A stretch of 64,000 nucleotides of DNA from Raillietiella orientalis (taxonomy: Eukaryota): the NCBI GenBank assembly GCA_036172245.1, contig JAYWIR010000033.1:558001-622000 (forward strand), read 5' to 3'. The notes below the pieces were generated by a model, which was not told where the DNA came from, did not search any database, and saw only the letters and a program-made list of their open reading frames with translations. Below are positions 11,279-61,343 of this stretch, in pieces. The position numbers and the translations under genes are program-made. Within the stretch, counting starts at the first letter, position 1. The number at the start of each line of letters is the position of its first letter.

Positions 11279-12620
11279 CGCCGAATACCCGGAGCAGATT
11301 TTGCACAGGAAATTGTTCGCAGAATTCCCGGACCGAGTCCTTAAATAGGTCCCGATCCGCGAGACTCTGGAGGGTGACGCCTTGCAGGAATTCGCGAAGA
11401 TGTTCTTTCGCTCCTGACAGGCGCGTCCAGTCCCCTGGCATACGCTAATCCATGGATCGCGGTCCCTTGTCGCGCGTGTGCATCTCGAATACTAACCGGG
11501 AATGGTCCGACAGCGTCGATCCAAGTGTCCCTCATTTTCCGACCCGTGTGCACAGGTCTTCGTCGAGGAAGACGTGGTCCACGCTGCTGACCATCCCGCT
11601 TATTTCTGTCAGCAAGTTGCGCGCGCGCATGGCGGCGTACAACTCCTTGATCGCGTTACCCTGTGCTCCGGGCTGATGTGAGAGCAGACAAACGTTGAAA
11701 TCCCCTGCTATCAGATGCGCCTTTCGCACGTCCGCGTCCGCCAGCCATTCGCGCTTCAAGGTTTCCAGTAACGCGTTGCGCTACTGGTATCCCCGTTTAC
11801 CGCTAGGAGCGTACACATTGGTGACGATGAGGTCGATCGAATCGGACCATCTGAGAGTCAGTTCGCCGATCCGTCCGTCGTCCCCAAAGCGCACGCCCTT
11901 CACGGCCGCGTTAATGGCAGGCTTTAGGAAGAACGCGACCCCAGCAGTGTTGCGGGCACCGCATCGCCAGTACAACCGCCCTCCCGCGATTGTTTCGATC
12001 TCCTGGGCGTCTTTTGCGGTGATCACGTGGATCTCCTGCAAAAGCACCAGGTCGAAATCTCGTAAGGTGGCGGCTGTATCTCGTCTGTTTCCGTCGTCGC
12101 GCAGCCCGTTAATATTCCAACTGGCCGCGCGGATCCGACGGCGACAGGCGAGTCCAGGTGTTATTCCTGGGAACCTGGCGGTGGTGCTCTTGCCACCTTT
12201 TGGGGCGGGTCGCTGGACGGGGTTGGCGTCTTGCCCACCAACTCCTCATCCTTCTTACGTGCCAAAGTCTCCGGCTGCGCGTGCGAAGGGGGTGTTGTTC
12301 GTACCTGTTGGCCCACATCCATTAGTGCGGGTGGTTCAGGTTCGGCGGTTTCAGAGGGCATTGCTGATCCCTGGTCACCCTCCTCCATTGAGGTCGCCTC
12401 CTTGTCGGCTTCCGCACGTGGGTAATGCCCGACTTGAGCTTTCACGCTGCCATCCACTGGTTCCTCCACCATTGCATCCCCCTCGCGCGGAGGCGGAATG
12501 CACCTTCGGGGTTTCTGGGATTTTCGCCACGCTTTCCTTGGTGGTGCTTTCGCAGAGTAGGATGCACTTTCGGCCTCCCGGTCCGACTCACCTAAAGGGG
12601 CCACTTTAGCCGCTGCCGCA
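11279..12620 (-). mobile_element. Family A fragment (ORF1 C-terminus plus endonuclease)
   Basis: LLQEIHVI, NVYAP, IAGDFN, VDHVF motifs; close copy of about 23185-24525. Confidence 0.8.
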
Positions 12621-15600
12621 GGTGCGCCAGAGTTCCCTGAACGCTCTCAGTACCAACTCAAAGTAGATACTGACGAGCAAGTGGCTCAGGCTGTCTCCTT
12701 GCCGGATCCCACGTCGCACCGGCACGCCGTGAGCAGTGTGCCCGCTAAAAGTTACATTGATTTGCGAATCGCGCCAGCTAGAGCGCAGATAGGACAATAA
12801 TGAAGCCGGGAAGCCCAAGCGTTCCAGAAGCTCCAGCAGGAGATTCTGGTCGACGCTGTCGAAGGCTTTACGCAAGTCGACAGCGACCGCAAGTGCTCCC
12901 TCCCCCATCCGACCATCCGCCACATGACTGACGGACTCACCGGAATTCCCGGTGCGCATCAAGCCCCTTTCGTGTTGGAGCCGTAGCCAGGTGGATGCGT
13001 GGAACAGGTTCGCCTCCATGCATCGCCCCGGAACAGCATACGTCTGTTCCGGGCTGATGAAGGCGTTTGCAACCCGTCCCAAGCGCTCAGCCCAAATCTG
13101 AGCTATCAACTTGGCATCTGCATTTACTATTGTGATGGGACGCCAGTTGTTCATGCTACTCAGATCTCCTCCCTTAGAAAGAAGTCGCACCTTTGCCGAA
13201 CGAAACGAGGCGGAAACGACACCTGTCTCGCGTATCAGCAAGGTGACTTGATGTACCAGAGGGGTTAGATCAGCCGCGAAAGTTTAATAAAACTCCGCGG
13301 ACAGGCCGTTCTCCCTTGAAGCCTTTCGCCTCTTGAGCTTTCCGATGGCCGAGATGATCTCGCCCATCGTGAAAGACTAGTCGAGGGACTTTTTCTCCTT
13401 TTCTCCGATCGCAGGAACGCCTTCCGGAAGCAGGATTCGTGAGAAATCCCGCTCGGGAGGCGTTCTTGCGTACAGGGAGGAGTAAAAACGCCGCAGCAGC
13501 CCGCGACTCTGAGCGGGTGCCGAATGCTCCTGGCCCTGATCGTCCAGCAAACTCGCCGATCCTGACTGCCAGGCTTGCCTCTCGGATCCCGCTTTGTATT
13601 CCGCCAGCCTGCGGATCCCGCTTTGTATTCCGCCAGCCTGCGGTTACGACAGGTCCTGTCGTAACCGCGAGTCTGCAGATAGGCTAGTTCGTTACGTACC
13701 CCTTCCCCAAATCCCGCAGGTAGGCGGTGCAGAGGGAACTGGTCGCAGAACTCCTGGACCGACCGTTTGCAGCGGTCCCAATCCTGAAGTGTCTGCATCT
13801 TAAAGCTCCGTATAAACGTGCGGAGATGTTCCGTCGCGTCCGGGAGCTTCTGCAGTTCCCTGGCAAACGCCACGCTGACGAGGAAGGGGCCCTGTCGCGC
13901 GGATGGATTTGAATCACGATTGGTCGATGTTCGGACAACTCGCACGGCAACTTGCAGCGACTGCCCACACGAGTACACAGGTGCTCGTCAAGGAACACGT
14001 GATCGATGTTGTCCTCCATCCCTGGTACACTGGCCAACAAATTACAAGTGTACACCGCCGCGCACACCTCGTTGACCAGGTCACGCTCGTGATTCGGCCC
14101 TTCCGGTTTCAGACGAACGTTAAAATCGCCTGCAACCAGATGGGCATTCCGCACGCCTGCCTCGGTCAACCAGTCGCGATGGAGGGCAAGAAAAAAATCT
14201 TTCCTGGCCCTCCTGTTCGTCAGGTCCGCTTCGCTTGGGGCGTAAACGTTCGTAACGATCAGGTCGATCGAGTCGATCCAACTGAGAGTCAGCTGGCCGA
14301 CACCACCGTGATCGTCGAAACGAACTCCACGGGCGGCGGCCTTGATGGCAAGCCGATGCAGGAAGGCGACACCACAACTTCTCGATGTTCCACACCGGAA
14401 CCACAACCGCCCTCCGTAGATGCGTTCGATATCCTGCGCTCGTACACTGCAGACGTATTTTCGCGTATATCCGCGCCAACGATCGGACAACTTTGTGCCT
14501 GCGTATTCGTTCGCACTTGTGTGTTCCTGTGCAATCTGCCAAGTAGCATAGTGGAACATGGCCAGTACGCAGGATAGTGTGGAGGAGCAAGCCACTGGAT
14601 GCACTTCAGCTGCACTAGAAGGGACCGCATCCTCCGTAATGGTTTCCTCGCCCTCGGTGAGGAGTTACGCCGCCGTTACCTCCCAAAGACCAGGACCCTG
14701 CGATGCGGAGTACCAGGCATATGTGTCATCAGGATACATGCCTGCACTCCGTTATAAGGTCAGTGGGCCCCTTAACGGGAGAATCGGTCGTGAGCTCAAT
14801 GATGAGCTTGTCCGGATCGGCGTTCGCGAGGAGGAACTCCTTGCCATAATGCCTGCTGGCAGGATGGAATATACGAAGATTCGGTGCAAGAACGCAGCAC
14901 TTGTGCAGCGCCTTCTCCGTACGCCGTTGACCATCAATGGCGAGGATGTCCTACCTACCGCGATAGACGACTCTTTTGTCGTTCAATTGTGCGACATCGA
15001 ACCGGAAATCTCCGACCGCGATGTCGTAAGTGTGCTGGCGAAGTTTGCCACCGTGCACGCTCTGTAAAGGAGGCCAAATCCTCTAAAGGATTTCCCCTCT
15101 GTCCACATTGGACAAGCGTCCGCGCAGATCACCGTCGCGAACAGGAGTGTTGTGCCTGAGCAGCTGCAGGTGAACGGCACGGTCGTTCACCTGTGGTTCA
15201 AAGGCCAGACTCGCGCGTGCGAGCAGTGCGGCAAGAAGGGGCACCGAACTAAGAAGTGCCCCTATCCAGGATGCCGCAATTGCAGAGATTCCGTGCACGA
15301 AATCAAAAAGTGCCCGGTACTTGCAAGAAAAAGAGCCGCAGCGGAAATTCGTCGGGTTCAAGAGACCACTGCACGAAAAGCCGCAGCGGCAAATAAAAAA
15401 CGTCGTCCGAAAAAACTCGCAAAAAACCACGAGCGATATGCGGATGAAAAGAAAGCATCCCCGCCCGCAACGCCCCGAAAAAGGAAAGTCACGGCGTGGA
15501 AGCCAATTAAAAAGGAGCGCGAGGGTTTGACGCGTGCCGTGCCTTCCCTCTCTGTCTAACTCGCAGGCACCTCTCCGAGCCAGGAACCAAAAAATCTCCG

Positions 15601-18600
15601 TAACACCCTGGAGGGAAAGGTAGGAAAACAAGAAGATCGCAACAGTGCGAAGACTTCTTGCCCCGTTCCGTTGTCCCTTCCAAGTTCCGGACAGCCCCAC
15701 TGCCGCGCAGGCCCCACTGCAAAGGCTACGAAAGCTGTAAAAAGCAGCGTCGAGACGAGCAAAAGCACTCTCCATGCATTCGTTCCATCGCCGACTCGGC
15801 AGGAGAGGAGCAATCTCCCGACTGTCGAGAAGGTGTCACCGTTGCCGCCTTTTAAAAACGTAGCGAAAGCAACGCCCTCAGAGAACGCAGCGAAAATCCC
15901 AAAGGTTTCCGCAACTACTGTCGCGGAAGCCTTTAAAAATCGCGTAGGGGAATGGAAGGTTGTGGAGAGGAGGAAAGAAAAATCTCCAAAAACACCTCTG
16001 CAACCTCCATTACTGAGCTCTTCCAAAGGAAAAAGCAGTCGCGGGAATACGAAAACACGTGCGGCTTGTGCCTCTTCCAAGGAAAAAGCCAGCGCCTTCA
16101 ACGCGTGCAAGTCCGCTTATGTGACCGCCAAGAACACCACTCCGGTGCAGTCGGACAGATGCAAGCGCACGTCGATCGTGCGAGCATGAGACTCCGCAAA
16201 GGAGTCAGATAGCGCCGCTGAACGACGCGTTACTCGCGCGGGTGCCAGCGCCCGCAGGGCTGAAGCCCTGAGGCGTGACACACTTGCCGCGGAACGGCGA
16301 GTGCTCACCCCGGAACCCACATGTTCTGCATCCGGGGAGGAGCACCCGATTACGTGCAGCACAGTTGAGGCCGGTGGCGAGCGCGCCCTTCAGCCCGTCG
16401 TGCTGCTTACTGCTCGCTCGCCGGGTGAGGCGAGCATTACTGCCTCGCTTTCTCAGCCGTGATGAGGGCAATCGCGTCTTCTCGTCGTGTTGCCGTAACG
16501 TCTTGGAACTTCAACGGGCTCCAACACGAGAAGAGGCGACTAGTGACTGACGCTCTGCCCGCCTTCGACTTGACGCTCCTGCAGGAGATTCACAGCATCT
16601 CCGGAGAGAAGGCTGCCGAAATCGAACGGCGCGCAGACGGAACGCTACTTTATAGGTGCGGCGTTGCACGAACGTGCGGCGTCCCTTTCCTCGTGCGAGG
16701 AACTTTGGCATGAGCGGTGCGCAGCTTTCGTTTCGTCACAGAAGGCCGAGTGGGACAGCTTGTACTCAAGTGGTCCTACTCGATCGACCTTGTCGTAACC
16801 AACGTGTACGCGCCGAGCGGTGCTGGACGATGGGCCGGAAGGATTGAGTTCTTCGGTACCCTTCAAAGCCAGTGGCTCACTCGATCTCACCCTACTGTGG
16901 CCCATCTCATTGCGGGGGACTTTAATGTCCACCTGCTTTCCGAGAATAGATCCCACAAAAGGGAAAAGTTTCTAGCGGAAGAGACGTGCGCGTCCGTGCA
17001 CGCGTGCAACTTGTTCGCTAGCGACCCTGTTATGGCATTAACGCCGGACCACGTATACCTTGATGAACACTTGCTCTGTCGATTGGGTCGGAGAGGTCCC
17101 GTGCCGTCCGTGCTTTCAGACCACAACAGGCTCGAGTTCGAGTTGCTCCCGCCAGGCAAGGGGCCTCCAAACTGTTTTTGGAGGATGCCGGCAGTCTGGC
17201 TAAGCCACCCGGAGGCGGCTGAGCATCTTCGCGAGTACCTCCTCGACTTTGCCATAAGTGAGCTCGAAGACTGGAACCATCTGAAAAGATCGGTCCGCGA
17301 GTTCTGCTGCCGGTTTCCTTGCACCAGCTTCCGCGCGGATTCGGAGAGGGCGTAGCCAACAGCAAAGATTTTCTGCAAGTTCGCACCTTTTCCAGGCGCG
17401 CGGACGTTGGTCGATTATCCGAGTACAAGGCCAAGGCCGAGCGCCAGGTCTGGCAGTCAGAAGCGACAGTTCTGCTCGACGACCAGGACCGGGAATACTC
17501 GGCTCCAGCCGACGTGCGACGGATAGTCAGGCGCTATTACTCTTCTCTGTATGCAGAGGCACCGACGGAACGCAGCTTCTCCCGGCTGCTTCTGCCGATT
17601 GATGCACCTGTTGTAGACGAGGAGGAACGCGCGCGTCTTGATGAGCCCTTCACGGCAGAGGAAATTTCTTCGGCCATCTCGGGGCTCAAGAGACGAAAAG
17701 CGCCAGGCAAAGATGGGCTCCCCGCGGAATTCTTTCATTGTTTTGCGGCGGAGCTCATCCCCCTGGTGCTCCAACTCTCGTCGCTGAGGCGAGACTCGGG
17801 CGATGTGCCCGCCTCGTTTCGCTCCGCGAAGGTGCGTCTACACCGAAAGGCGGAGATTTGCGCCAGCTGAACAACTGACGTCCGATCACATTAGTGAATT
17901 CGGACGTCAAGTTGTTCTCGAAACTTTGGGTGGCGTGGATGGGTAGGATCGCGGAATCCTTGGTAAGTCCGGAGCAGACGTACGCTGTTCCTGGGCGGTC
18001 CATCGACGCGAATCTCTTGTTTATCCACACATGGCTGCAATTGCAGCATCGTGTGGCGGTGGATCGTCGTAGGGAAGCGCCGCCTTCGATGTCTCACCGA
18101 CGGAGGCGCAGAACGCAAAGGGAGACACCGGCAGCCTTTGCGGTTGCAGTCGATCTCCACAAAGCTTTCGATTGCGTGAACCAAAAGCTTCTTCTTGAGC
18201 TTTTGGAACGTCTGGGTCTTCTGGCATTCCTGTTGGCGTACTTGCGCTCCTGCTGGCGCCACGCGATTACATCCATTGTTTTCAGTGGCTGTCGCGTGTA
18301 CGGCGTGCCGGTACGACGAGGAATCAGGCAGGGTGACAGCTTAAGCCCGCTGCTCTTCAGCATCTATTTTGAATTGGTGCTGGAGGCTTACCGGCTGACG
18401 CTAGCCAACCTGCCGAGCTCCTGTCCAGGTACGCCGGCCGTGGCAGCCTATGCCGACGACCTGCTCTTCCTGTTGCCCATGTCCACCCCGGCGACATCGC
18501 TTGAATTCTTCTTTGAGTTGATTCGTCGCGGTGCGGGCGTGAGCGTTAACAGCAGTAAGTGTATGGTTGTTCCGGTGGGTGCGACGTGCGAGGGGCAGTC

Positions 18601-21600
18601 CGACTGGATCGACCTGGAAATCCATGCGAACAGGTACCTCAGGTACCTTGGCGTGCCGTTGGGCGACTTCTGCATCTCAGAAGCGTGGTCGGATTGCCTT
18701 CGGAAGGCAGAGCGTGCACTTGCCCGTTTTCAGGAGGCGAGTTTGTCTTGCCGGAACGGGCCTGCATCTGGAACACCTTCGTTGCCCCCCTCCTCCGCCC
18801 CCTTTTTTTTGTTTGTCCACCCCCCCAGGAAGTCAAAGTCTGGGGGCAGCGCCTTCTACGCAAAGCGTTGTGGGGCGCTGCAAGATCCCGTGTTAGACTT
18901 AAAGACTTGGTGGCGCCTGGTCAGGATGCAGGCTTGGGCATCCTCGACTTAAACAGCATCGAACTGCAGGTGCAGTTTCGCATGCTGCGGCTCTGTGCCA
19001 ACCTGTGGTGGACGCCGTGGTGCTTAGCCGCACGCCTTATACTGAGGCGTTACACGGGAAGCGAAGGACTGCTTTTGTTGCTACCCCACATTCGGCACAG
19101 CAGAATAGGGTTTGGCTTCCCGCTGAGGCAGCTGTCCTCACTGCTGGAAGCCCAAAGCTGGATCTTCTGCCGCCTCATGAACATTAATGCATGGCGGCAG
19201 GAATCCTTTTCATCGTGGGCAGCTTCCGAAGGAACGCGCCCGGAAGATCTTCGATGCCTGCGACTTCTCCTCAGTCATCAAATGTACGAAATCATGCAGG
19301 ACAAGAAGTTGTCGGATCGTCTAGCCGCCACACCACTCGCCGCAGCGCTGTCTGCTTTCAGGGCAAGCAACGACGGTTGCCTACCGGCGGAATGGGAGTT
19401 CTCCTGTAAAATAGCGGGAGTCAGTAAGCTCCTCGGCAGCTGGACGATAAAGGAGCTGGTGCAAGCCGCCACACCTCGGAATCAAGCGAAGGACCTGCTT
19501 CGGTGGAGCGAACATTTAAGTGTGCCCCCCGGAGAGATAGTGGTTCCCCTGGTTTGTTTGGACAGCTCCGTGTTCCCTATTAAGTGGAAACAAGATGTGC
19601 TGCTCTTTTTACATTGTGCATTACACTTTAATAGGCAGCGAAGCATCGTTTCCGGGGGAGCTGCTTTGCCAAAATGTTTAAGGTGCGGAGAGATCGAGTC
19701 TTTTCCGCACCTTTTGCTGGACTGCGGTGACCTCCAAGAACTGTGGCGAAGCCTCACTTCGGCCATCATGCCACCAGGAGGCACTGCCATTGATGTGCTG
19801 CGGCGCTTCTTCAGCAGAAATGGACTTTCGGTTGGCGCGATTGTCGCAAACATGTGTTGCGTTCGCGCCATCGTGAAGGCCCGCTACGCCCTGGAGTTGT
19901 CATCGCAGCGAAGGGAGGCTCACCTGCTTGCAGCTCAATTCATGGAGAAGGCTTCAAGGTGGTCTCATCTTCGTGACAAGGTGAATGAGGACATCACCGG
20001 CATACATCGCCGGTTTACACACCTTTGAGAACGGCGTAATCCGGTGACCCCTGCGACCTCTCGCCCACCCATACCCCGTCCCCGTTCGCTCGGTAAAATT
20101 TCCGGTGCCCATGCTTTTATCCCCGTGTCTTCCAGAGCGATCCCAAAGACCCTTATCCCGTCCTCCTTATTCATTGTTTTTATTTTATTTTGGTTTCTTT
20201 GTGTTTCCCGCCCCCCACACCGTTCACAAAACTGTTACTATTGCCTGCGTGCCCGCAATATTCTCTTCATTCTTGTTCAGTCTTCGGTTGTGAGTTTGGT
20301 TCCCAACTGGTTTATTTTGTATAATTGCTTTTTTTGGTAATGTTATATGGAATAAACGCCTCGGCGTGACCGGGTGAGAAATCTCCTGCGCTTGTTCTGC
20401 AGAGATCACATGCATCTCCTGCAGCAGCACAAGGTTGTACGATCCCAGAATGACGGCCATGTCTCGTCTCCTGCCGGCGTCTGTCATGCCGTTCACGTTC
20501 CAAACGGCGATGAGCAGACGACGGCGGGAGGAGATTCCCGGCAATACTGTAGGGAAGATGACGGTGTGGGGGAACACGCCTCTTCCGAGACGGGTGAGAT
20601 GACCGTTAGGGTTTCAGCCTCCTCAGGCACCTTCGGTACCTTTCCGGCTTCAACCCGCTCCATCTCCTCCGTGTCTGTGCGTGGTGGTCTCTCGGGTGAC
20701 GATTCCCGGGATTCTCACACGCTCATGGCACCCTCGCAGTCGAAAGTCATCTCCAAGCCTTTGACCTGGAGAGGGGCTTTCCAAGGTTTGCTGGACTTCC
20801 TTCCAGCCTTCCCGCGGGGTGCCGCGGAGATGGAAACTTGGTTTCCGTCCTGCGCTTCGGGGTCGGAAGTTACCGACTCCTCGGTGGAGGCCGGACGCCT
20901 CACTGCCTTTTTGCCAGCCTTGCAGGGGTCTGGCTGCAATGATGCAGCCAGCTCCTCCGCCGCACGCTCGAAGGCGGCGTCATCGATCACGGTCTCGATG
21001 ACGGACGCTTCCGCCGGTTCGCTTCCTACGCTGTTGACATTTTCAACAGTGGGTTGCTCGTCGGTAGCAGCGATTTCTACCTTGCGGCGTTGGGCGGGGA
21101 CGCGTTCCACGACAACGCTGCATTCTTTTGAATTCTCGCTAACCTGCTGTTTTTTATTTTGGTAGGCGAGCTTTTTTTTGAATTCGTCGTTCTTTCTTCG
21201 ACTTTTTTTTCTTTTTCGCTGTGACTTCTTGCCATTCCGACACCTGGCCGCTTTTGTCGATCTTTCCGGCATTAGTTGCCGGGGTGTCGGCTGAGGCCTG
21301 GACAACGGGAGTGGGTGGCACAGCTTGAGCGGTAGCCTTCGCCACCAGTTTTTTCTGTAGCAGGCGCGCGCGTTTTTTTAGGTTCTTCGCGGAAACCACG
21401 CGCACAGCGGATTGTGGACACACTTCCTTCGTGTGGCCCATTGTCCCGCATACCAGGCACTGTACGTCGGGGCACCTCCTTTTGAGGTGTCCCGACGTGT
21501 TGCAGAAGCCACACTATTTGGGCTTCCCCACGTACCAGAAGTCGACGCTCTCTCCGCCGACCACCAGTTTGTGTGGAAGGGTAGAGCCCTCCCGAACGGT

Positions 21601-22352
21601 TACACGGGCAGCCGTGAGGCCGCACTCAACTGTGGTATAGTCCTCGAAAGACTAGGCTTGTTCCATACTGCATGCACCGTGCCTTCTTTTCCCAACGCGG
21701 CGCGTAACTGTTCGTTCCGCATCCCCGCGGTAACTCCTGAAAGGTGGACCACCATACTGTGGTCCGCCGTAACGGGAAGGAGCCTGCGTGTCCCCATTAC
21801 CACGGGGGTTTTAAGCAGACGTTGGGCCAGATCTGCATGTTAGCAGATCATCTCTACGTTCTGCCTTCCGCTACGAATGGTCATAGCGCAGAGCTCCTCC
21901 TCTTCAACATCGAGAGCGCGCATCCCCTTTGAAAAGGCGCGCGCACTCTCAGAAGAATACAAATTTCCTACCTTGTAGAATAGTGATGGGTTATACCCCT
22001 CTTCCACATAGGCAGATAATTCCGCCGCGGCTGCAGGCGATGGGGCCGACACGACGGCGCTCCACGCCCGCACTGCAGCGGGGACCGATTTTGTGATGGC
22101 GGACGCCCCCACCTCCTTCGCCACTTTAGGCGACGTTGCCGCCGCCTCCTGGCATTCCACCTTCTCTAGAGGCGACGTTGCCGCCGCCACCTGGCACTCC
22201 ATTTCCTCAGGAGGCCACGTTGCCACCGCCCCCTGACACGCAGTGATGGTCGTGTCAGGCATTGCTGCCTGATCGACCACCACCACACACGAAGCCTACA
22301 CCTAAGGACGGTTCCCGGCAGGAGGAGCACCGAGGAAACACGTCCGCTCTAG
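12621..22352 (-). mobile_element. Family B-like LINE (ORF1 ~22260-20560; endonuclease split at 20381/14440; RT to 12621) hosting the family C insertion
   Basis: Endonuclease reads VWNVNG..LQEMHVISAEQAQEI and resumes AQDIERIYGGRL at 14440; RT VDLRKAFD..GIRQGDSLS in ORF 12606-13241. Confidence 0.8.
14441..20380 (+). mobile_element. Full-length (~5.9 kb) family C L1/Tx1-like LINE with 12-bp TSD; ORFs disrupted
   Basis: ORF1 from 14558 (MASTQDSVEE; CEQCGKKGHRTKKC); ORF2 SWNFNG, NVYAP, GDFN, SDH, YADD, CLRCGEIESFPHLLLDC; ATATCCTGCGCT 14429-14440 vs ATCTCCTGCGCT 20381-20392. Confidence 0.88.
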
Positions 22353-22359
22353 CCGACGT

Positions 22360-25300
22360 AAAGCTTATGGAGGTCGACTGCGATCGCTAAGGCCCTTTCT
22401 CCCGCATGAGGGTCCCTACCCTGTCCCACTGGCGGCACCAAGGTAGGGTTGCAAATTCTTCCTTTCCCTTCTTTCTTACTCCGCTGCGCGTGCATCCATG
22501 TGCTCGCGAAGAAGAGGTTGTCCTCCATACTTCGCCCGGGAACAGCGTAATTCTGCTCCGGGCTAATTATGGTATTGGAGACCTGCTTCAATCGCGACTT
22601 TCACAGCCCGGGAATCACCTTGGCGTCCGTGTTCACAATCGTGATCGGACGCCAGTTGCAAAGTTTCCTGAGGTCTCCTCCCTTCGGGAGGAGCCTCACC
22701 CTGGCTGACAGAAACGAGGCGGGAACATCGCCGTCGTCTCGGATTCGCCTTGTCAACTCGAGCACCAGGGGGGCCAGCTCTTTCGCGGAACTCTGAAAGA
22801 ACTCCGCGGGCAAGCCGTCTTCCCATGGAGCTTTACGCCTCTTGAGCCTTTTGATACCGGCGAGAATTTCACCGGTCGTGAAAGGCTCATCGAGGCTTTC
22901 TCTCTCCTCCTTTCCTATCGCCACGAAACCACTCATGTGCATTCGCCACGAATCGTATTGTTTGGGTGGTGTTTTGGCGTAAAGGGAGGAATGAAAACAC
23001 CGCACGAGATTCCGTACCGCAGACAAAGACGAACGTTCCCGGCCCAGGTCATCCAGCATGCTGGCTGACCCGGATTGCCAGGCTTGTCGCTCGGCTCCAG
23101 CGCGGTATTCGGCCAGGCGACGGACATTGAGGTTCCTCACGTGACGACACGCGTGCAAATACGCGCGTTTGTTGCGAGTCTCTTCGCCGAATCCCCGAGG
23201 CACACGTTGCACAGGGAACTGTTTGCAGAACTCCCGGACCGAGTCCTTAAATAGGTCCCGATCCGCGTAACTCTAAAGGGTAACGCCTCGCAGGAATTCG
23301 CGAAGATGTTCTTTCGCTCCTGACAGGCGCGTCCAGTCCTCTGGCATACGCCGATCCCTAAATGGCGGTCCCTTGTCGCGCGGGCGCATCTCGAATAATA
23401 ACTGGGAATGGTCCGACAGCGTCGATCCAATTGTCCCTCGTTTTCCAACACGTGTGCACGAGTCTTCGTCGAGGAAGACGTGGTCCACGCTGCTGACCAT
23501 CCCGCTTATTTCTGTCAACAAGTTGCGCGCGCGCATGGCGGCGCACAACTCGTAAATCGCGTTTCCCTGTGCTCCGGCCTGATCTGAGAGCAGATGGACG
23601 TTGAAATCCCCTGCTATCAGATGCCTTTTTCGCACGTCCGCGTCCACCAGCCATTCGCGCTTCAAGGTTTTCAGTAACGCGTTGCGCGTCTGGTATCCCT
23701 GTTTACCGTTAGGAGCGTACACATTGGTGACGATGAATTCGATCAAATCGGACCATCTGAGAGTCAGTTCGCCGATCCGTCCGTCGTCCCCAAAGCGCAC
23801 GCCCTTCACAGACGCGTTGATGGCTGGCTTTGGGTAGAACGCGACCCCACAAGTGTTGCGGCCGCCGCATTGCCAGTACAACCGCCCTACCGCGATCGTT
23901 TCGATCTTCTGGGCGTCTTTTGCGGGGATTACGTGGATCTCCTGCAAAAGCACCAGGTCGAAATCTCGCAAGGTGGCGGCTGTATCTCGTCTGTTTCCGT
24001 CGACGCGCAGCCCGTTAACATTCCAACTGGCCGCGCGGATCCGAAGGCGACGGGCGAGTCCAGGTGTTATTCCTGGGAACCTGGCCGTGGTGCTCTTTTC
24101 ACCTTTCGGGGCGGGTCGCTGGACGGAGTTGGCGTCTTGCCCATCAACTCCCCCTCCTTCTTACGTGCCTACGTCTCCGGCTGTTCGTGCGAACGGGGAG
24201 TTGTTCGTACCTGTTGGCCCACATCCATTAGTACGGGTGGTTCAGGTTCGGCGGTTTCAGAGGGCATTGCTGATCTCTGGTCACCCTCCTCCATTGAGGT
24301 CGCCTCCTTGTCGGCTTACGAACGTGGGTAATGCCCGACTTGGGCTTTCACGCTGCTATCCACTGGTTCCTCCACCATTGCATCTCCCTCGCGCGAAGGC
24401 TGAATGCACCTTCGGGGTTTCTGGGATTTTCGCCCCGCTTTCCTTGGTGGTGCTTCCGCAGAGAAGGATGCACTTCCGGCCTCCCAGTCCGACTCACCTG
24501 CAGGGGCCACATTAGCCGCTGCCGGCCTACGCAACCCCTTTCGCGAAGGGTTCTCGCGTTCGGCAAGCGTTGCCGCAAGCTCCTCGGCGGCCTTCTCGAA
24601 GGCTGCGTCCTTGGTTTCGGCGATTTTGTCGTCCGGCTGACCCTCTTCGCAAGCAGATGGCTGGTTTTCGCGCGCATTCGTCGCGGCGGGAAAATCGATC
24701 GAAGCCGTATCGCCTCCGGTGGTGTCGGCGGGAACCTCAATGCGCTCCAGCGTAACCGTGCATTCTCGGAGAGTTCTTACGCGCGACACGGTTTGAGCTT
24801 TTGTTCCGGCCGCCGCCTTCTCTCCTTTCTTCGGGACATGCTTTTCCTTTTTCTCTTTTTTGGCTTTGACTAGCTGCCAGCCCTGTTCTCCCTCTGCGGT
24901 TTCGGGGAGATTTTTCTCCGATGCCGCGCTTGGAGCTTGGGTTATTGGCAGCTTTTCGCGGCCAGTTTCACGGTTTTCCAATTTTTCTTTCCCCGCGCGT
25001 TTCCCTTGCGCCTTTTTGGCGGCCGAGGAAATTGGGGTAGGGCGTTTAGGGCACACGCGACGGACGTGTCCCTTCTCCCCGCACAAGTAAAATACGATGT
25101 TTGGGCACCTATTACGGATGTGTCCGACCGCATTGCAGTAGCCGCAATACCGTGGCTTTCCCGCATACCAAAGGTCTACCGGTTCTCCCGCGACCTCAAG
25201 TTTGTGGGGTAGCTTCGCTTCGTCTTTTGAAGTTACGCGTGCCGCGGCGAGGCCCCCGAATTTGCGTTGTAGCCCTCAAAGATAGTGGGCTTCGGCCACA

Positions 25301-25915
25301 GCGCCTGTACGTCCCCGTACTTACTTAATTCTTCTTTTACGGCAGTGCGCGTCCTGCGCTTGGATATTCCTGTCAAGTGGACCACTATTAAGTGGTCCAT
25401 TGACACCGGGATGATTTTACGGCCGTTATGATCAGCGGAATATTTATAAGGCGGTCGGCTAGGCTGAGCTGTTGCACACCAGCTCAACTAGCTGCGCCCT
25501 GCTGAGAACGCACTGACCTTCCAGATCTTCCTCACGGACATTAGCATTTTGAAGCGCTCTGCTGAAAGAGCGCGCCGTGTTTCCTTCAAACAAAGGGCCT
25601 ACCTTGTATACAAGCGATGGCTTCTATTCAGAGGTTCGATAGGCGGCTTCCTCGGCCATGGCCTCCGCACTGGGGGCGGCGACCATTTCACTCCTAGTCT
25701 TCGCCGGCTGCGAAGACTTTCCAGGGACTATTGCCCGCATAGCTGTAGGTGTTGTGGAAGGACTTGCCTCCTGCACAACTACCTCCATCGCGGTGTCCTC
25801 TTTCACGGCTGCCATCGGACACCGACGACCCACAATTTACACCTGACTACACTTGAAACTCCGGTTGCTTCCCAGACAAGCGCTGGCGGAGCGACCAAAA
25901 GACACGTCCACCCAC
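22360..25915 (-). mobile_element. Family A LINE: 5' end, ORF1, endonuclease, RT N-half (truncated at VDLHK)
   Basis: ORFs 24316-25086, 23273-23971, 22601-23212, 22349-22591. Confidence 0.82.
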
Positions 25916-25924
25916 ATCGGTTTT

Positions 25925-28015
25925 CGGCGATACCACCCGGATTCGCCGGGACGTTCATTAAAAACATTTCGACAGTCGATACAGAACATGGTACAAGGCC
26001 CTACTGCCGGCCACGCAATGCCGTAACTGCCGGGACACCGGGACGCAGCCCGGTATGGCTCTCCTCGGCAGTGGAGGGGGATGGGGGAGAAAACAAAAAT
26101 AAAATAAAAGAGAAAAACAAACCACAAAAAAAAGTTTGCCGGGCCGGGAACGGATCACAGAAAACTGCTGGGAGTGCCCATACTTTGCAGGATGCCTGCT
26201 AGTACCATTTTCAGTTTTCCTAGATTGGGCAATCGGGTAGCTCTCTGCAGGAAGCGAGAAGCGTACTCGATGACGTCCCTCACGATGCATTCTTCATCTT
26301 CGGCATCACTCCAGGCCGCCACGATACCACGAATGCAGCAAAGTGCTGCCAGGGCTGCGGTTGGACTGAGGGCGTCCCGCAGGAAGACAACACTGAAGAC
26401 ACATCCAACATTGCCACCATCCGGTATCCGGAGGGCCGCTTTAAGACGATCCCAAAGAATATGGACGGCAGGGCATTCAACTAAGAGGTGGGGGAGCGAC
26501 TCCCGCTTCCCACACCTGGCACACGCAGGATTTACTCTTCCTCGCGTCCAGAGGAAGCGGCGCGCGTTGCAGGGTAGACCCCAATGCAGCCACAGAAGCG
26601 CCGATTGTTGCCACTTCAGGGGAAGAAACCTGGATCCAAGTAGAATGGGGGTCACTTCAGGTCATCCAATCGAATGCCGAGCAGCTCGCATCATCTTCTT
26701 AATCCACGCGGCTGGAGACTAGGGGTCCTTGCATCTGTCAACTCTTCCATGGTCCAGCCGATCATCACCTTCTCTATGCCTTCGTTACGGCAGCAGACTT
26801 GCCACCTTGGCTTCCGACTTTCGTGAAGCGCCCTTTGGAGGAAGGGCATCGCCGTAACAAGGGGTGTGCCTTCCGCCTACGTGCAACTCGGTGGAAATTC
26901 AAGAATTTCACGGAGAGTTCGGCGGGCGTAAAAGCCGACTCTCAGGCAGTTCATCCGGTTTTAGCACCTCTGGTTCTGCTTAGCCCAGGTGCCAGCAGTC
27001 TCTTCCAGCCAAGCGGAGGAGTTGGCAGGGCCACAAACCATCCAGTCGTTCTCCTTTGCCAGGGTTGCCATGCGGCCGAGCAGTAGACCGCATCTTCGAA
27101 TCTTCCTGCCAGGGCACAGAAGAAACGATGCGAGTCCTTCGCAGCGGGACACACGCCTAGCCAGGAGGCGGGCCGGAATGCACCAAGCGGTGCTCAACAT
27201 CTTCGCTGCGATGGCGAGGGTCCGCCATCGCAGCTGGATTTCCACGCGCTCCAGCGTCAGGATGCAGAGACCGATGTCCCGACGCGGAGCACACAAGTCC
27301 TTCAAATTGACTCGGGGCCTCCTTTTGCCCCAAAGAGCTATGCGAACGAGGTCCTTTGTCCTCTTCTTCGATTCCACGGTGGGGGGGCAAACAAAAAGCA
27401 AGGGGCGGAGGATGGGGGACTCGAAGGCGTTAAAAACCGTGGCCCGTTCCGGCAAGTGAAACTTGCCTTCCAGGTACGGTCCGATCGCCGTTTCGACTTT
27501 TTGGAGGCAGCTAGACCACGCTTCCGCCGGGGGAAGTCCCCCAACGGCACACCGAGGTACTTGATGCACCTCACCGTAGGGATTCCCAGACGGACCCAGT
27601 CCTGCTGCCCTGCCCACGTCGCTCCAACTGGAAACACTGACGACTTTGCCCTGTTAACCTGTAATCCGGCCTCACGGCTAAGCAGGTCGAAGAAATCTCC
27701 GACCGCCTTCGCCGGGGTGGACATAGGTAAGAGGAGCAGAAGATCGTCGGCATACGCCGCTTCGCCTGGCGTGCCGGGGCACGAGCTCGGCAAGGGGGCC
27801 AAAGTCTCCCTGTATGCTCTAAGCACCAACTCAGCGTAGGTGCTAAAACGCAGAGGGCTGAGGCTGTCGCTTTGCCTTATGGCCCGCCGCACCGGCACGC
27901 CATACACCTCTTGTCCACTGAAAGTAATCGAGATTATCGCGTTTTGCCAGCAAGAGCGCAGGTAGGTAATCAAGGAGGGTGGGAAGCCCATGCGGCCCAG
28001 GAGCTCCAAGAGGAG
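25925..28015 (-). mobile_element. LINE ORF2 3' half (RT to zinc finger and 3' UTR)
   Basis: AAYADDLL (ORF 27338-28111); CARCGKRESLPHLLVEC; terminal motif at 25933-25959. Confidence 0.82.
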
Positions 28016-29113
28016 TTCCTCGAACCCTTGGGATTTCCTGCCTTTTTCCTGGCCTACTTGCGCTTCTGCTGGCGTTTCGCGTTTATTAATATTAATTTCA
28101 GCGGCCGGCACGTGTTCGGCGTGCCGCTTTGTCGTGGTATCCGGCAGGTTGACAGTCTGAGCCCCATGCTCTTCAGCATCTACTTTGAGTTGGTGCTGAG
28201 AGCATACAGGGAGACTTTGGCAACCCTGTCGAGCTCGTATCCCGGCACGCCTGCCGTGTCGGCCTATGCCGACGATCTTCTGTTCCCGCTTCCCGGGTCC
28301 ACCCCGGCGTCGGCGCTCGAGGATTTCTTCGAGTTGCTATACCGTGGGACAGGCCTCCAGGTAAACAGGACGAAATCGTCGTTGCTTCTCACCGACTCGA
28401 CGAGGGCCGGACGGTCGGACTGGATCCGCTTGGGGATCCCCACGGGCAGGTACATCAAGTACCTTGGCGTTCCGTTGGGGGACTTCTGCTCTGCAGAAGC
28501 CTGGTCCGCCCGTCTACAAAAAGTGGAGCTGGCGATCGGCCCGTTCCGGGACAGCAAGTTTCACTTGCAGGAACGGGCCACGGTATGGAACGCTTTCGCG
28601 CCCCCATTCCTTCGCCCCCTACTTTTTGTGTGCCCTACCCCTAACCAATTTAGGACTCGGGATAGGGGCATTGTACGGAAAGCCCTCTGGGGCAACCGGA
28701 GGCCACGCGTTCGGCTCAAAGACTTGTGCGCTCCACGCATGGACGGTGGACTTGGTCTTCTGACGTTGCAGCGAATGGAGCGACAGCTCCAATTCAGAAA
28801 ACTTACCCTTGTGGCAAAGTTTTGGAAAGCACCCTGGTGTGCACCGGCAAGACTCCTTGCTCACAGGGCAACCGGCTGCTTCGGATTGACTCCAATCCTG
28901 GTAGCCAACGAACGCAGCCTCAACCGTTGTGGTTATCAGCTGCGGGATCTGGTTGCCCTCATGAGAGACAACCCTTGGATCTCCTGCATCCCATCGGACT
29001 GGACTACCTTACCAGAACAAAGAGTGACGCCAACAGCGAGAAGCCCGCTGCTTCTTCGTTGTCACGAAGAGCACGCTCTCAGACAGAAGCAGCTCAGAAA
29101 GGTCAAGAAATAG
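28010..29113 (+). mobile_element. LINE RT C-half fragment of a related family
   Basis: ORF 27872-29113: GIRQVDSLSP, SAYADDLL, IKYLGVP. Confidence 0.8.
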
Positions 29114-29149
29114 GTCTTCCCCTTTTATGGCCTCTTCCCTATCGTCCGC

Positions 29150-32100
29150 TAGGAGGCTGAACATCGCCTAATGGAATGTAAACGGTGTGGTCGACCAGGG
29201 AAAAAAAAAAGAATTGTGCGGACTATCGCACAAGAAGACATAGTGTGCCTGCAGGAGACCCACAAGATGGGTCTCGAGATTAGTCAGCAAATGGAACAAG
29301 GATTCAACAGGCAGATGTTCGTCAGCGAGGGAGAACGGAACACGCAGAGTGTGGCGTTCCTAATCAACAACAACTTGGCCTTCACTATTCTGGAAGTGTT
29401 CTCTCCCCAACCCGGACGAATCATCGGCGTGCGACTGGCCTGGTCTTCTACTGTTTACCTCATCCTGGTGAACGTGTACGGGCCGCACAGGCTAAAACAT
29501 CGTTGTGCGGAGGCGCTGCATGCAGCACTGCGTGAAAAAATTGCTTCCAAGGACGTCGTGATTGTTGCTGGCGATCTCAACATTTTGAATGTGATCATTC
29601 ATTCGGAAGACGCCAGAGGAAGGACGGCGTATTGACGGCTATCCGAGGAGTTCGGACTGGTCTGGCGAACAGCAAGCCACAAGCCAATCGATCACGTCCT
29701 GCACAGCACCGAACTTGGGAACCGCATCCAGGGGTTTCGCGACACTATGACCACGGTGTCCGATCACCCCCTGGTGCGGTTTTCCTTAAGAACGGAGAAT
29801 CATCGGCGGAGGCAAGTCGCCAGGGCGGCGCTCATCAGCATGCCCGCCTGGTTCGAAACCCATCCTGGACATCAGGCTGTCCTGGAGACGATTCTGAAGG
29901 CAAGAACAATCCGAAGAGTTGCCGATTGGGACAGCCTGAAACACAGGATACACCTGTTTGCAAACATACAGTTCGGGGATAGGCACTTCAGGCAGGAGGC
30001 GTACCAGGAGCTGAACATCCAAAATCACTCACTCTCAAAGTGCTTCGGTCAGTACGAGAGTCGGTACTTCTTCAACAGCATAAAAAAGGAAGTTGACGTG
30101 CTGGAGAAGGGAAAGCTGGCAACAGATAACTTCTGCATTCAGTACGACGGTCAAGAGCGACAGTCGTCCGAAGATATCGTGGAAGCCTTCCACAGGCATT
30201 ACACGAAACACTTCAGGCGACAACATCTCTGTCGCTCTTGTCAACAGGCCTTTCTCAGCTATCTCGAGAAGAGGACCGACGATCTCCAGCGGAACAGACT
30301 GGAGGAGGAGTTCTCCGAAGATTAGGTGAAGACTGCGTTTGGTCAACTACGCAAGGACGTGGCAGCTGACCCTGAGAGCGTACCCATCACTCACTATCAG
30401 CGGTACCTACAAGCCTAGCTGCGTTTGTTCTACCAGTTGACCCTCTGCATTCGCTAAGAAGGAAGACTTCCAGAGTCCTTCTACGAGAGTCGGATGAGAT
30501 TGTTGCCAAAAGGAGGCGACCTCGCTCAGGTGGCTCAATTGAGGCCAATCTCGATCCTGAACTCCGATGCCCAGTGGTTGGCGAAGATCTGGTCCAATCG
30601 CTTAGGCAAGGTCATGCCGAGGCTCATCTCTCCGGTCGAAACGTGTGCAGTCCCTGGACGTCACATGTCGGACAATGTCAAGTGTGCCCAAGCCACCGTC
30701 GGACTCAGCAAATACTTCGAAGAGAACCTGGCGCTGGTGTTCACTGACATGGAGAAGGCCTTCGACTCCATCGACCATGGGATGCTGCTGAAGATTCTGG
30801 AAAAGCTAGGACTTCCGGAACACTACAGCATCTTTGTGAGGGTGGTACTTCAGAACCAGTACTGCCGAATCAAAATCAAGGGCCAAAGGACGGCAGCAAT
30901 CCGGATGGAACGGGGAGTCCGGCAGGGCGATTCGCAAAGTCCGATGCGGTTTGTCATCTACATGAAAACGTTGTCATCCTTTATCGAGCAGAGCGGACGA
31001 CTGCAAGGCATAACAATCGATGGCCAGCGTCTTACCCATCTGGCATACGCTGATGATCTATGCTTATCAAGGGAGAGAGAAATCAACGAGCGTTTCTGGA
31101 TGTGGTAGACCTGATGGTTGAAGGCCGGGTCTAAAGATCAACGCCCAGAAAAGCCAGCTCTTGCCCGTTGGAATCCTCGATCTCTCCGCTCTAGCGGAAA
31201 GAGGATTCTCAACGGTGGACAAGGCCAAGTACCTGGGTGTCCACATTGGCGACGTCTCCGCGTCGAAGTTATTGTAGACCGACATCCTAGGGAAAACGGG
31301 CAAGGAAGCAGCCAAGTACACCCGAACGGACCTTGGAATGAAGTGAAAGGCCAACATATGGAACGGAGTACTGCTTCCAAAAGTGCTCTTCGGAGCGGCC
31401 TTGGCGAGGATGAACAAGGGCACCACGAGGGAGTTTGACAAGCTGAATAGAAAAACACTGTGGGACCACTATCGCCCAAGAGTTCGACTAAAACCCCTGT
31501 GTCGTCCCAGGGAAGAAGGCGATTTCGGGATGAAGTCACTTGCACACTCCATAGAAAACATGGATACGCGACACATCCTGGACATTGTTACTCACTGGGA
31601 TGACTGGCCGCATGCGGCGCCCAGGGCCTACCCGTTGTTGTTGAACAACTCGGAAGGCCTGATGACTGCGCTGCTAGGCCGAGCAGGCGAATGGAAAAAA
31701 ATCGAATCAACCTGGACGAGAAAGCAACGGCTGGTGCGAAAGCACAAAATCAAGATCGTGCCGAGAAGTAAGGAACTCTGGCAGGACAAGTCCATCCTGG
31801 TGATCCCTTGGATGCTTCCTGTCCCGCCAGACACGAGCAGCTGGATCCACCAGCGCTTCATAGTTACCCTACAACCAATCCAGGAGTGCAAACGAGGAGG
31901 GTACTCACATCACACTCGTATACTTAGGTATATAAAGATGATGTTAGGAAGGTTTACCCACATGAGTCGCAAAGTGTGGTTCAACCACAACGACATTGCG
32001 TGGTCCAGGGTAACCAAAACAAACGTCCGAAGACTAATTCAAGAAAACAGTGATATCAGTGCCCTCCAGGAAGCCGCCGATCGCTACGGGAGTGACCGGA

Positions 32101-32765
32101 TCAACCTGTTAGCCATTGCCACGACGCTCTGGACGAGTGACCTTTTGCCGGGCACCCAGGATGACCTCCTGATGTTTTATCATGGAGGAATCCAGAGTGG
32201 GACTCGATTGCAGCACTACACCAGAAGTAAGGATGACCGAGACTGCACAGCATGTGGAGACATCGACACGAGACTTCACGTCTTCACATGTCCCACATTG
32301 CTGCATGACTGGCTGATCCTGAAAAGGATCATCGGACTCACCACCAGGTCCGTAATGGAGATCCTCGCCGGGATGTTTCAGGGGGATGGTAATGTTCCCT
32401 GTTACAATCCCATGGTGAGGACGACCATCGCCCTCTTCATCACCGCCATACTTGTACGGTGGTGGAAAATGAGGAAAGCCAGAAGAGCCGCACCACCGAT
32501 GGAGATCCTACAAGGGCTCCTCAAGAGTAAAATCGGCATTAGAAACTGTAGGAAAATCCAAGCCTGGACGTACCGATTCATCCTGAAGAGGATAGAAGTC
32601 GACGTCCGGGACCAAACAGCAGGAAACCCACCATGACTGCAGAACTTCTGAACCCATAGACTTCAGAGTGGTAAAGATGTTATGAATGAGACTGTAGGGT
32701 GAATGTTTTGGTACAAAAATTTTCGAAAAATAAATTTACCCCACCCCTTGTGGGACTTGGGGAAA
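29150..32765 (+). mobile_element. Divergent family E L1/Tx1-like ORF2, near complete but disrupted
   Basis: CLQETH, NVYGP, AGDLN, SDHP, LRPISILNSD, DMEKAFD, GVRQGD, LAYADD, CTACGDIDTRLHVFTC. Confidence 0.85.
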
Positions 32766-34122
32766 CCTGCCGAGTTGGCGATGGGGCGACTGCATGCAGC
32801 GTGCTTTTGCTCGTCGCTGCTTTTACCGCTTTCGTAGCCTTTGCAGAGGGGCCTGCGCTGCAGTGTGGCTGTCCGGAACTCAATAAGGACAACGGAACGG
32901 GGCAAGAAGTCTTCGCACTGTTGCGATTTTCCTGTTTTCCTACCTTTCCCTCCAGGGTATCACGGATATTTCCTGGTTCCTCGCTCGGAGAGGTGCCTGC
33001 GAGTTCGGCAGAAAGGGATGGCACGGCACGCGTCAAACCCTTGCGCTTCTTTTTAATTGGCTTCTTCGCCGTGTCTTTCCCCTTTCGGGGCGTTGCGAGC
33101 GGGGATGCTTTCTTTTCTTCCGCGGATCGCTCGTTGTTTTTTCCGAGTTTTTGCTGTCGACGTTCTTTATTTGCCGCTGCGGCTTTTCCCGCAGTGGTCT
33201 CTTGAACCCGACAAATTTCCGCTGCAACTCTTTTTCTTACAAGTACCGGGCACTTTTTGATCTCGTGCCCGGAATCTTTGCAATAGCGGCATCTTGGAGA
33301 GCGGCACTCTTCAATTCGGTGCCCATCCTTGCCGCACTGCTCGCACGCGCGAGTCTGGCCTATGAACCACAGGTAAACGACCTTGCCGTTCACCTGCAGC
33401 TGCTCGGGCACAACATGCCTGTTCGTGACGGTGATCCGCGCGAAGGCTTGTCCGATGTGGACAGAGGAGAATTCCGTCAGAGGGTTCGCCCTCCTCCACA
33501 GGGCGTGCACGGTGGCGAACTTCACCAGCACGCTCACAACATCGCGTTTGGAGATTTCCGGTTCGATGTCGCACAATTGAACGACAAAAAAGTCGTCCAT
33601 CGCGGTAGGTAGGACTTCCTTGCCATTGATAGTCAACGGCGTACGGAGAAGGAGCTGCACAAGTGCTGCGTTCTTGCACCGAATCTTCGTACATTCCATC
33701 CTGCCAGCAGGCATTATGGCAAGGAGTTTCTCCTCGCGAACGCCTATCCGGACGAGCTCATCATTGAGCTCACGACCGTTTCTCCCGTTCAGTGGCCCAC
33801 TGACCTTATAACGGAGTGCAGGCATGTATCCTGATGACACATATGCCTGGAACTCCGCATCGCAGGGTCCTGGTCTTTGGGAGGTAACGGCGGCGTAACT
33901 CCTCACCGGGGGCGAGGATACCATTACGGAGGATGCGGCCGCTTTAAGTGCAGCTGAAGTGCATCCAGTGGCTTCCTCCTCCACACTATCCTGTGTACTG
34001 GCCATGTTGCACTATGCTACTTGGCAGATTGCACAGGAACACACAAGTGCTAGCGAAAACGCAGGCACAAAGTTGCCCTATCGTTGGCGCGGATAGACGC
34101 GAAAACACGTCTGCACTGTACG
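32766..34122 (-). mobile_element. Second family C copy (5' UTR and ORF1, 3' truncated)
   Basis: ORF 32680-34005 begins MASTQDSVEEEATG, nearly the same as the ORF at 14558. Confidence 0.88.
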
Positions 34123-34395
34123 AGCGCAGGAGATCGAGACAATCGCGGGTGGTCGTTTGTATTGGCGATGCGGCCTCCGCAACACCTGCGGGGTCGCGTT
34201 CTCCGTGAAGCCATCGATAGACGCTGCCGTAAAGGGCGTGCGCTCCGATGACGACGGTCGGGTCGTTCAGCTGATTGTCAGCTGGTCCGACTCGATTGAA
34301 CTACTTGTCACGAATGTGTACGCCCCAGCGGAAAACAGGGATACAGCGACCGCACCAGGTTGCAGGAATCCCTGAAGCGCGACTGGCAGGCGGAC
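34123..34395 (+). mobile_element. Family A endonuclease fragment (target of family C copy 2)
   Basis: AQEIETIAGGRLYWRCGLRNTCGVAF..NVYAP. Confidence 0.75.
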
Positions 34396-43599: not shown

Positions 43600-44150
43600 C
43601 CTTCTCGCCAATCTACGTCTCAGAAAGCGGCAACTGGAACTCTTCGACGCCAACAAAAAACCAGCAAACCAGAGAACCATATTCTAGTTTTACGACACAT
43701 TTGGCAACGCAGGAAAAACTACGATGGTCAAATATCTATAAAGCAAAAAAGGAACCATCTACATGCATTTCTGCCGAAAAGCTGGCGCAGCCCATATCTA
43801 CAATGGGGAACATCGTTGTCACGTGACACACACGTGTCTTCACACGTGACAACCAAGAACACGTACAATATGGCTTTGTAGAATCCCTCAAAAATGGGAT
43901 ATTCGACTCCAAATATCAAGGATCGATGAAGTACTTTGACGTTGGAAACACTCATATTTGCGAACTGGGAGTCCGACAACTCAAAAATGAGTGCTGACAG
44001 ACGGTTTGCAAAAAATATTGGCAGACGTGCAGATTCCCAAGATACGAGTTGGAAAATGAATGGAAAAGGATCCATTCTCCCATGGGCTTCAAGCCCTAGA
44101 ACAGAGCAAGTGCATGACACGCCTGACTTCTCTTGAGCACGCTTTCACCA
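43600..44150 (+). pseudogene. rep: CRESS virus Rep helicase half (decayed endogenous viral element)
   Basis: FYDTFGNAGKTT, IYMHFCRKAGAAHIYNG, VQYGFVESLKNGIFDSKYQG, KMSADR; homologous to 62537-63085. Confidence 0.85.
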
Positions 44151-44204
44151 ATTTCTTTGAGTGATTTCGCTAGCAGCGAAATCACTCAAAGAAATTTTTT
44201 ACTA

Positions 44205-44305
44205 CTAGTATATTGCTAAATCTCTGTTCTGATTGAACTCCAAATAAAACATTTGGGTTATTCTATATAGAGAGTAGCCTTTTGTTAAAGTACCCTCCTT
44301 TGGAA
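44205..44305 (-). pseudogene. cap: CRESS capsid C-terminal fragment converging on rep
   Basis: PKEGTLTKGYSLYRITQMFYLEFNQNRDLAIY* vs PKNGNLTKGYPIFRITTRYYIWFKHLRDVSLY* at the end of ORF 62232-62513. Confidence 0.75.
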
Positions 44306-44314
44306 CCGGTTGAT

Positions 44315-48420: not shown

Positions 48421-48429
48421 GGTGAGCGG

Positions 48430-61286: not shown

Positions 61287-61337
61287 CTTGAAATTCACTG
61301 TAAGTGCGACTTGTTTGTGGTTGTCTGCGTGTTGGTA

Positions 61338-61343
61338 TTTATA
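61338..61343 (-). promoter_or_regulatory. Candidate TATA box for rep
   Basis: TATAAA on the minus strand about 50 nt upstream of the rep ATG, next to the origin. Confidence 0.45.

Follow-up and report, generated by a model that had tools for sequence, protein, structure and literature searches.

Known target-specific LINEs insert into RNA genes or simple repeats, into DNA or LTR transposons, or into copies of themselves. For the Tx1 clade, the available part of PMC4494074 describes a range of targets: Tx1D for Tx1L (Xenopus), Mariner-N4_AMi for the crocodilian Tx1-Mar, LTR elements for Tx1-8_Crp and Tx1-4_AMi, and Harbingers for Tx1-9_AMi. Zepp (Coccomyxa/Chlorella) and ZeppL (Chlamydomonas) are L1-type LINEs which form nested clusters in existing LINE copies (PMC3446292 and PMC8226300, available parts). 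In R2 elements whose RNA retains 28S sequence from upstream, this target-derived 5' extension has been postulated to anneal and so to yield uniform 5' junctions (PMC3774820, available part); R1Bm reverse transcription is accurate only if target sequence lies downstream (PMC7265360, available part), and SART1 and TRAS1 have DPE promoters (PMC4748587, available part).

We analysed a window of 64,000 nt (the whole stretch of DNA under study) together with the 210-Mb assembly to which it belongs. Family C is a 5.94-kb L1/Tx1-like, APE-type non-LTR retrotransposon of an animal genome. It is very likely a sequence-specific LINE which enters, by target-primed insertion, one site in the endonuclease gene of its sister LINEs and whose RNA starts within the target, the loss of the host ORF2 being a by-product. 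Like the Tx1 clade, C is an APE- and RT-bearing LINE of an animal (several Wnt genes are present in the genome) with a preferred site in another transposable element, and 88/100 of its 5' flanks lie in one sequence type, where more than 20% is taken as target preference in that clade (PMC4494074, available part). Unlike the elements known from the Tx1 clade, it inserts into coding sequence of sister LINEs (whose RTs are about 58-65% identical to that of C), and several families are involved; against Tx1-like matches the RT identity of C is only about 30%, and in a quick tree its RT did not group with them. Whereas Zepp, as far as the available text goes, hits its own family and is mostly 5'-truncated, C spares its own site, is mostly full length and hits other families; self-insertion of the Zepp type was not found at C's own homologous site among 88 5' flanks, and tandem copies of C (8/100) join at the duplicated target and not inside C. 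R2 shares with the proposed C RNA the target-derived 5' extension (PMC3774820, available part) but cuts with a restriction-like endonuclease, carries an HDV-like ribozyme and targets rDNA, whereas C has a DPE-like motif and no Rfam match at its 5' end. R1Bm, SART1Bm and TRAS1 (R1 clade) are, like C, APE-type and sequence-specific, but they belong to another clade and use rDNA or telomeric-repeat targets. The C system is a variant within the target-specific LINEs, not a separate category. A literature search (outside whose scope lay most subscription papers, Repbase and the PMC4494074 supplements with Tx1 targets, which may bear on novelty) returned no report of LINEs aimed at fixed codons of sister LINEs.

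Make-up and relatives of family C

Copy 1 of family C and the host element split by it, which runs on the - strand, occupy the following positions of the window:

12639..14428, - strand: remainder of host B, comprising the rest of the endonuclease and the RT to about residue 645
14429..14440, + strand: 5' copy of the 12-bp target duplication, ATATCCTGCGCT
14441..20380, + strand: family C copy 1, full length (5940 nt), decayed (stops, frameshifts), colinear at 93-95% with other genomic copies
14451..14458, + strand: DPE-like motif with a putative promoter role (PMC4748587, available part), lying 10 nt into the element, at +23 counted from where the 12-mer begins
14558..16461, + strand: ORF1, gag-like, with CCHC zinc knuckles (PF00098); 634 aa in the intact copy
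15788..15803, + strand: empty family D insertion site in ORF1 (C positions 1348-1363)
16462..20028, + strand: ORF2, AP endonuclease and reverse transcriptase (PF03372, PF00078); 1191 aa in the intact copy L071
16611..16622, - strand: C's own homologue of the target, ATTTCGGCAGCC, 6/12 off pattern; none of 88 5' flanks is >67% identical to it
20351..20380, + strand: 3' end; contains AATAAA and a short inverted repeat, closes with GTGAGAA and lacks poly(A)
20381..20392, + strand: 3' copy of the target duplication, ATCTCCTGCGCT, which is the allele native to host B/H0
20393..22360, - strand: 5' part of host B, comprising the 5' UTR, ORF1 and the first ~55 endonuclease codons

Copy 1 is 95% identical to young copies of family C, which are 98.6% identical among themselves. 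The DPE-like motif reads RGACGTGT in most copies (copy 1 has one change), and RGACGTGT lies 10-12 nt inside the 5' boundary both in family C and in its sister families. L1 elements usually end in a 3' poly(A) or simple-repeat tail. Of the features of the L1 group, C has a target-site duplication (12 bp) and no LTRs but not the L1-type tail; GTGAGAA sits directly on the target in all inspected 3' ends. Pattern counts gave 127 5' ends (at <=2 mismatches) versus 161 3' ends (at <=3 mismatches), so that family C is mostly full length. A ribozyme at the 5' end was considered but found no support: Rfam gave no match at E <= 1, including the HDV-like ribozyme, in window 14300-14800 (the C 5' end), and RNA folding of the 5' and 3' ends of family C was no better than that of shuffles.

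The closest solved structures to the ORF2 of family C are those of human L1 ORF2p, and its RT is about 24-38% identical to database relatives. In a quick RT tree with long branches and without curated references, C and its hosts formed one well-supported genome-specific branch (RT identity about 52-65%), family D appeared as a long-branch sister to that branch, and C, hosts and D together (SH-aLRT 98-100) stood apart from the sole Tx1-named match and its fish relatives.

The target site and its occupancy

Read antisense, the flanks of copy 1 run ...LQEMHVISAEQAQE / AQDIERIYGGRL and belong to one single host family, B/H0, whose empty sites they match at 0.93 and 0.95 identity; 6/7 of these empty sites carry the native allele ATCTCCTGCGCT. 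The 5' end of copy 2 (34122, -) adjoins AGCGCAGGAGAT (34123-34134) inside AQEIETIAGGRL of a family A endonuclease. Copy 2 is interrupted by a family D LINE, and its 3' junction lies outside the window. The features around copy 2 and the empty C targets of the window are:

4904..4915, + strand: empty C target, family A, ATCTCCTGGACG
11998..12009, + strand: empty C target, family A, ATCTCCTGGGCG
23904..23915, + strand: empty C target, family A, ATCTTCTGGGCG
29021..32765, + strand: family D LINE, 3' two thirds, antisense in the ORF1 of copy 2; 87.9% identical to the full-length D of locus L074, with an ORF2 match
32766..34122, - strand: family C copy 2, C positions 1-1363 only
34123..34134, - strand: 5' 12-mer of copy 2, ATCTCCTGCGCT, two positions off the native 12-mer of family A
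34135..34409, + strand: stretch of family A endonuclease lying downstream of the target, 85% identical to the family A element at 4628-4911
35089..35100, + strand: empty C target, host family H4, ATCTCCCGGGCT

The original prediction placed copies 1 and 2 antisense at the same site in the endonuclease genes of two LINE families, and both junctions are present in the window with the sequences it gave. The two bodies are 91.0% identical over 1341 nt but the 260-nt flanks only 58.9%; therefore copy 2 did not arise from copy 1 and its flank by duplication or recombination, which the original prediction had named as a refuting case. The reading of the identical motif at copy 2 as an identical target was not supported, since three empty family A sites read ATCTCCTGGGCG, ATCTTCTGGGCG and ATCTCCTGGACG; the 12-mer of copy 2 is partly donor-derived (see below), and its perfect motif thus overstates target identity.

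The census was made over the 210-Mb assembly. Among 100 distinct 5' junctions, 88 were antisense at the host endonuclease site (84 placed by blastx and four by translating the short flank), eight were C-C tandems sharing one 12-mer between units, and four, copies of one event, lay in non-LINE DNA. The flanks are hence not random, 96/100 being in a host site or in a tandem, and antisense, site-specific insertion into the endonuclease of other LINEs extends beyond the two host families first claimed to at least four (B/H0, H1, H4, A) plus diverged ones. With queries without flanks, all of the best 30 5' ends were at the motif (30/30), while the best 30 3' ends comprised 24 in hosts, four in tandems and two others, with the site present in 28/30. 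Over the assembly, 121 3' ends were followed by the 12-mer pattern. For 85 distinct 3' junctions (sets of 45 and 40), 61 were in hosts, 11 in tandems and 13 elsewhere, i.e., 72/85 on target. The 13 off-target cases, which mostly share only ATC(T)C, include the four copies of the non-LINE event, one junction reading into C itself and one doubtful end. Within the set of 40, all copies at >=92% identity to the reference were on target (27/27), whereas 5/12 diverged relatives and one 76-nt fragment were off target. Specificity is therefore not absolute, and weaker in related subfamilies.

The target comprises codons 52-55 of the host endonuclease, in a helix 9-12 codons past the catalytic Glu43; the site is not itself a catalytic motif. 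The bare 13-mer has 333 matches compared to 21 for the reversed control, host and chance sites being mixed in these counts. For the pattern fitting H0, H1 and H4 we counted 322 empty sites and about 121 filled ones, so that about one quarter of the counted sites is filled; the share would be smaller if family A were counted. The homologous site of C itself received no insertion among the 88 5' flanks, and it departs from the target at synonymous positions too.

It is very improbable that the pattern goes back to one old insertion, or to a few, multiplied by segmental duplication or carried from host copy to host copy by recombination or gene conversion and not by repeated targeting, although duplicates do exist: the off-target event is present in four copies, five clusters of the host insertions look alike, a few copies have mismatched host flanks, and composites of C and D recur in different hosts. 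However, near-identical C copies occur in hosts 25-40% apart (113 pairs of C at >=98% identity have flanks at <=75%), merging of look-alikes leaves at least 76 clusters of the 88, one 12-mer joins the C-C tandems, and the switch between hosts is confined to 12 bp at the 5' end. The 12-mer switch and the flank and cluster comparisons largely refute this explanation. Distances of C bodies and flanks correlate weakly (rho 0.35), and some copies carry flanks from two different hosts, so that recombination and duplication raise the counts somewhat. A tree of 84 5' parts of C was mostly unresolved, with no clustering by host or 12-mer allele. At L072-L073, L086 and L136, the two sides of the C copy differ in the host family of their flank or 12-mer, which suggests recombination between insertions or assembly joins.

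Copies of C cluster on short LINE-rich contigs, which could point to a preference for LINE clusters at the chromatin level combined with purifying loss elsewhere. We regard this as extremely improbable and, as a sole cause, refuted, because it gives no account of the base-exact place and the single orientation in 88/92 non-tandem 5' junctions; it may still contribute.

The insertion breaks the host ORF2 near codon 55, and in this respect the idea that C disables competing LINEs stands; a purpose is not supported, only one in about four counted sites being filled. Targeting selected for the disabling of rivals, and not only for harmless multicopy landing sites, seems unlikely. The split ORF2, the number of filled relative to empty sites and the synonymous differences in C's own site are in its favour, but most host sites are empty and the hosts have young copies, any insertion within an ORF disables it, and target-specific LINEs are usually explained as seeking a safe haven in multicopy DNA (PMC4640811, available part). 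A safe-haven reading fits as well as purposeful disabling of competitors, and C and its hosts provide a test case for competition versus safe-haven ideas among transposons.

The 5' 12-mers and the proposed insertion mechanism

Host families differ in their 12-mers: H0 has mostly ATCTCCTGCGCT, H1 ATCTCTTGCGCT (11/11), H4 ATCTCCCGGGCT (10/10 empty sites) and family A ATCTCCTGGGCG or close to it. In host H4, the 3' 12-mer of C was of the native type in 14/14 cases (12 exact), whereas the 5' 12-mer was native in only 5/22, 13 being the exact H0 or H1 allele and four mosaics (Fisher p = 3e-6; some copies are possibly related). The switch between hosts occurs inside the 12 bp beside the 5' end only, none being found at the 3' end, and paired junctions had identical 12-mers in 8/34 cases, a set in which tandems, swapped flanks and a doubtful end are also counted. 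The non-LINE insertion event shows a perfect 12-mer on the 5' side only, the 3' side reading ATATCCTAGGTA. The 5' 12-mer of C is thus often derived from the donor and the 3' 12-mer is that of the host. The 76-nt off-target copy has an exact 13-bp duplication beginning with ATCTC, after CTTCA, which fits a stagger of ~12 bp and recognition of bases upstream of ATCTC.

For target-primed insertion by a sequence-specific endonuclease, which we favour, the junctions suggest the following steps. ORF2p would nick the coding strand of the host at about 5'-GGAGAT/CGAA-3', with a second nick on the other strand about 12 bp away. During target-primed reverse transcription the RNA, which would lack poly(A), would probably pair through a read-through ATCTC. 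As judged from motif and spacing only, the internal DPE-like motif may set the start of transcription a few nucleotides ahead of the 12-mer: in insect LINE promoters the DPE is found at +28 to +32 (PMC4748587, available part), a spacing that would place the start about 17 nt upstream of the C boundary. The RNA would then begin with target sequence, and the end of the cDNA might pair with the new target and so serve as primer for the second strand, by analogy with R2. Annealing of this kind would explain the asymmetry of 5' and 3' 12-mers, the uniform 5' junctions and the high share of full-length copies. The ORF2 of the host copy is lost as a by-product, and C, which spares its own diverged site, is itself a hotspot for family D. 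Since the hosts differ within the 12-mer, the junctions show the RNA-derived strand, which makes priming of the second strand directly testable.

The endonuclease of family C has all catalytic residues. Its model, with a mean pLDDT of 91, aligns well with L1-EN (Z 25, rmsd 2.2-2.6 over 205-211 residues); TRAS1 and R1Bm endonucleases were not among the fold matches listed for this model, which is uninformative on likeness. From GDFN to the second catalytic Asp motif there are 39 residues in C and 35 in D versus 44-73 in 67 database homologues (those in which the motif was found), and relative to L1-EN, C lacks ~16 residues in the interval from the aligned positions 186/178 to the catalytic Asp. 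In the model, a short helix (pLDDT about 88-92) takes the place of the betaB6-betaB5 hairpin, and by this comparison the L1 hairpin is absent from C (16462-17170) and from all sister families examined. In L1-EN the hairpin enters the minor groove (PMC1950540, available part). It sets the selectivity of L1-EN, and in Tx1L, L1 and R1 endonucleases a hairpin loop of this kind reads the target; its absence from C counts against the reading that we favour.

The same observations could be accounted for by RNA- or homology-guided targeting, in which the seat of specificity differs: the endonuclease would loosely prefer TTCR/ATCTC, and precision would come from target-derived RNA ends pairing with the nicked DNA. 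We consider this possible but doubtful. The missing hairpin in C and the sister families examined, the ATC(T)C kept at off-target ends and the donor-derived 5' 12-mer agree with it; however, a look-alike in the QEIH codons, 24 nt off and with 9/12 matches, was not used among the junctions, although rare sites with five matches were, and in known LINEs the pairing of RNA and target follows nicking.

Family D and other sister LINEs

Family D is a 5.65-kb LINE which lies antisense at C positions 1348-1363, in ORF1, in 59/84 scorable C copies, including copy 2 (32766/32765). The duplication is 15-16 bp long, and its copy at the 5' end of D had the same one-base difference in 4/4 inspected junctions. 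The D parts show twice the divergence of the C copies that carry them (median 12.3% vs 6.1% in 39 copies; distances correlate, rho 0.36) and belong to more than one subfamily; the C site was therefore hit repeatedly by D, and the difference in divergence rules out, as a sole cause, a single D insertion that spread along with C. D is not an exclusive C specialist either: its 3' motif has 418 matches, and only four of the first 30 sampled lie in C, while among the matches sampled that are >=87% identical to the reference D, 4/8 are in C. Two young D copies (L149 and L161) have the same non-C flank, i.e., a second recurrent site or a duplication. Near-identical composites of C and D occur in different host families (L085/L124 and L098/L104, one with the same truncated D) and may derive from retrotransposition of the composite or from recombination between C copies.

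Host family H4 is itself found antisense at residue ~266 of the ORF2 (the ORF2 linker) of another family in 8/8 non-tandem 5' ends plus two tandems, counts that rest on partial loci:

36969 and 8256 of the window, - strand: antisense 5' ends of H4 at ORF2 residue ~266; also at L062, L065, L067, L068, L070 and L105

Further fixed sites were observed beside these. Elements of the B/H1 type lie at the RT motif DLHKAF (HKAF), antisense at L075, L109 and L071 and in sense in the copy at window 22345 (-), from partial loci. Another family ends antisense at host RT residue 488 in six places, likewise from partial loci: window 1393 (+), L029, L176, L183, L187 and L189. Sense 3' ends and one breakpoint fall at the GDFN codons of the endonuclease (window 2400 and 4595, and L089). 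In partial loci, 3' ends with a common GGGCGTACCCGGGTG tail occupy a fixed sense site in ORF1 (nine cases) and a fixed antisense site past the endonuclease, in the ORF2 linker (six cases):

GGGCGTACCCGGGTG-tail loci: L057, L174, L176, L179, L180, L184, L185, L187, L188; L007, L010, L070, L190, L196, L199

It is conceivable, as a tentative picture, that a radiation of hairpin-less LINEs, each with a fixed site in a sister family and with RNAs beginning (perhaps also ending) in the target, forms a self-avoiding food web of retrotransposons, in which target choice is easily re-set and maybe guided by RNA ends. Mobile elements that serve as each other's fixed landing sites are an unusual case. Close LINEs (about 60% RT identity) with different, precise targets in each other's genes offer a natural series of enzymes and targets, from which it may be learned how APE-type retrotransposons shift their specificity, a long-standing question and one useful for site-specific gene insertion, and specificity exists here without the hairpin thought to set it.

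Three other parts of the window deserve mention. AT-richer DNA at 43717-48424 and 53344-63002 forms a long patchy inverted repeat (65-86% identity), in whose tested ORFs Pfam gave no match. A decayed RT-bearing element of another LINE type (about 30% to P0115) lies at 39456-41939. At 27241-28779, two related RT regions stand head to head and are joined at 27994-27998, which is probably an inversion junction.
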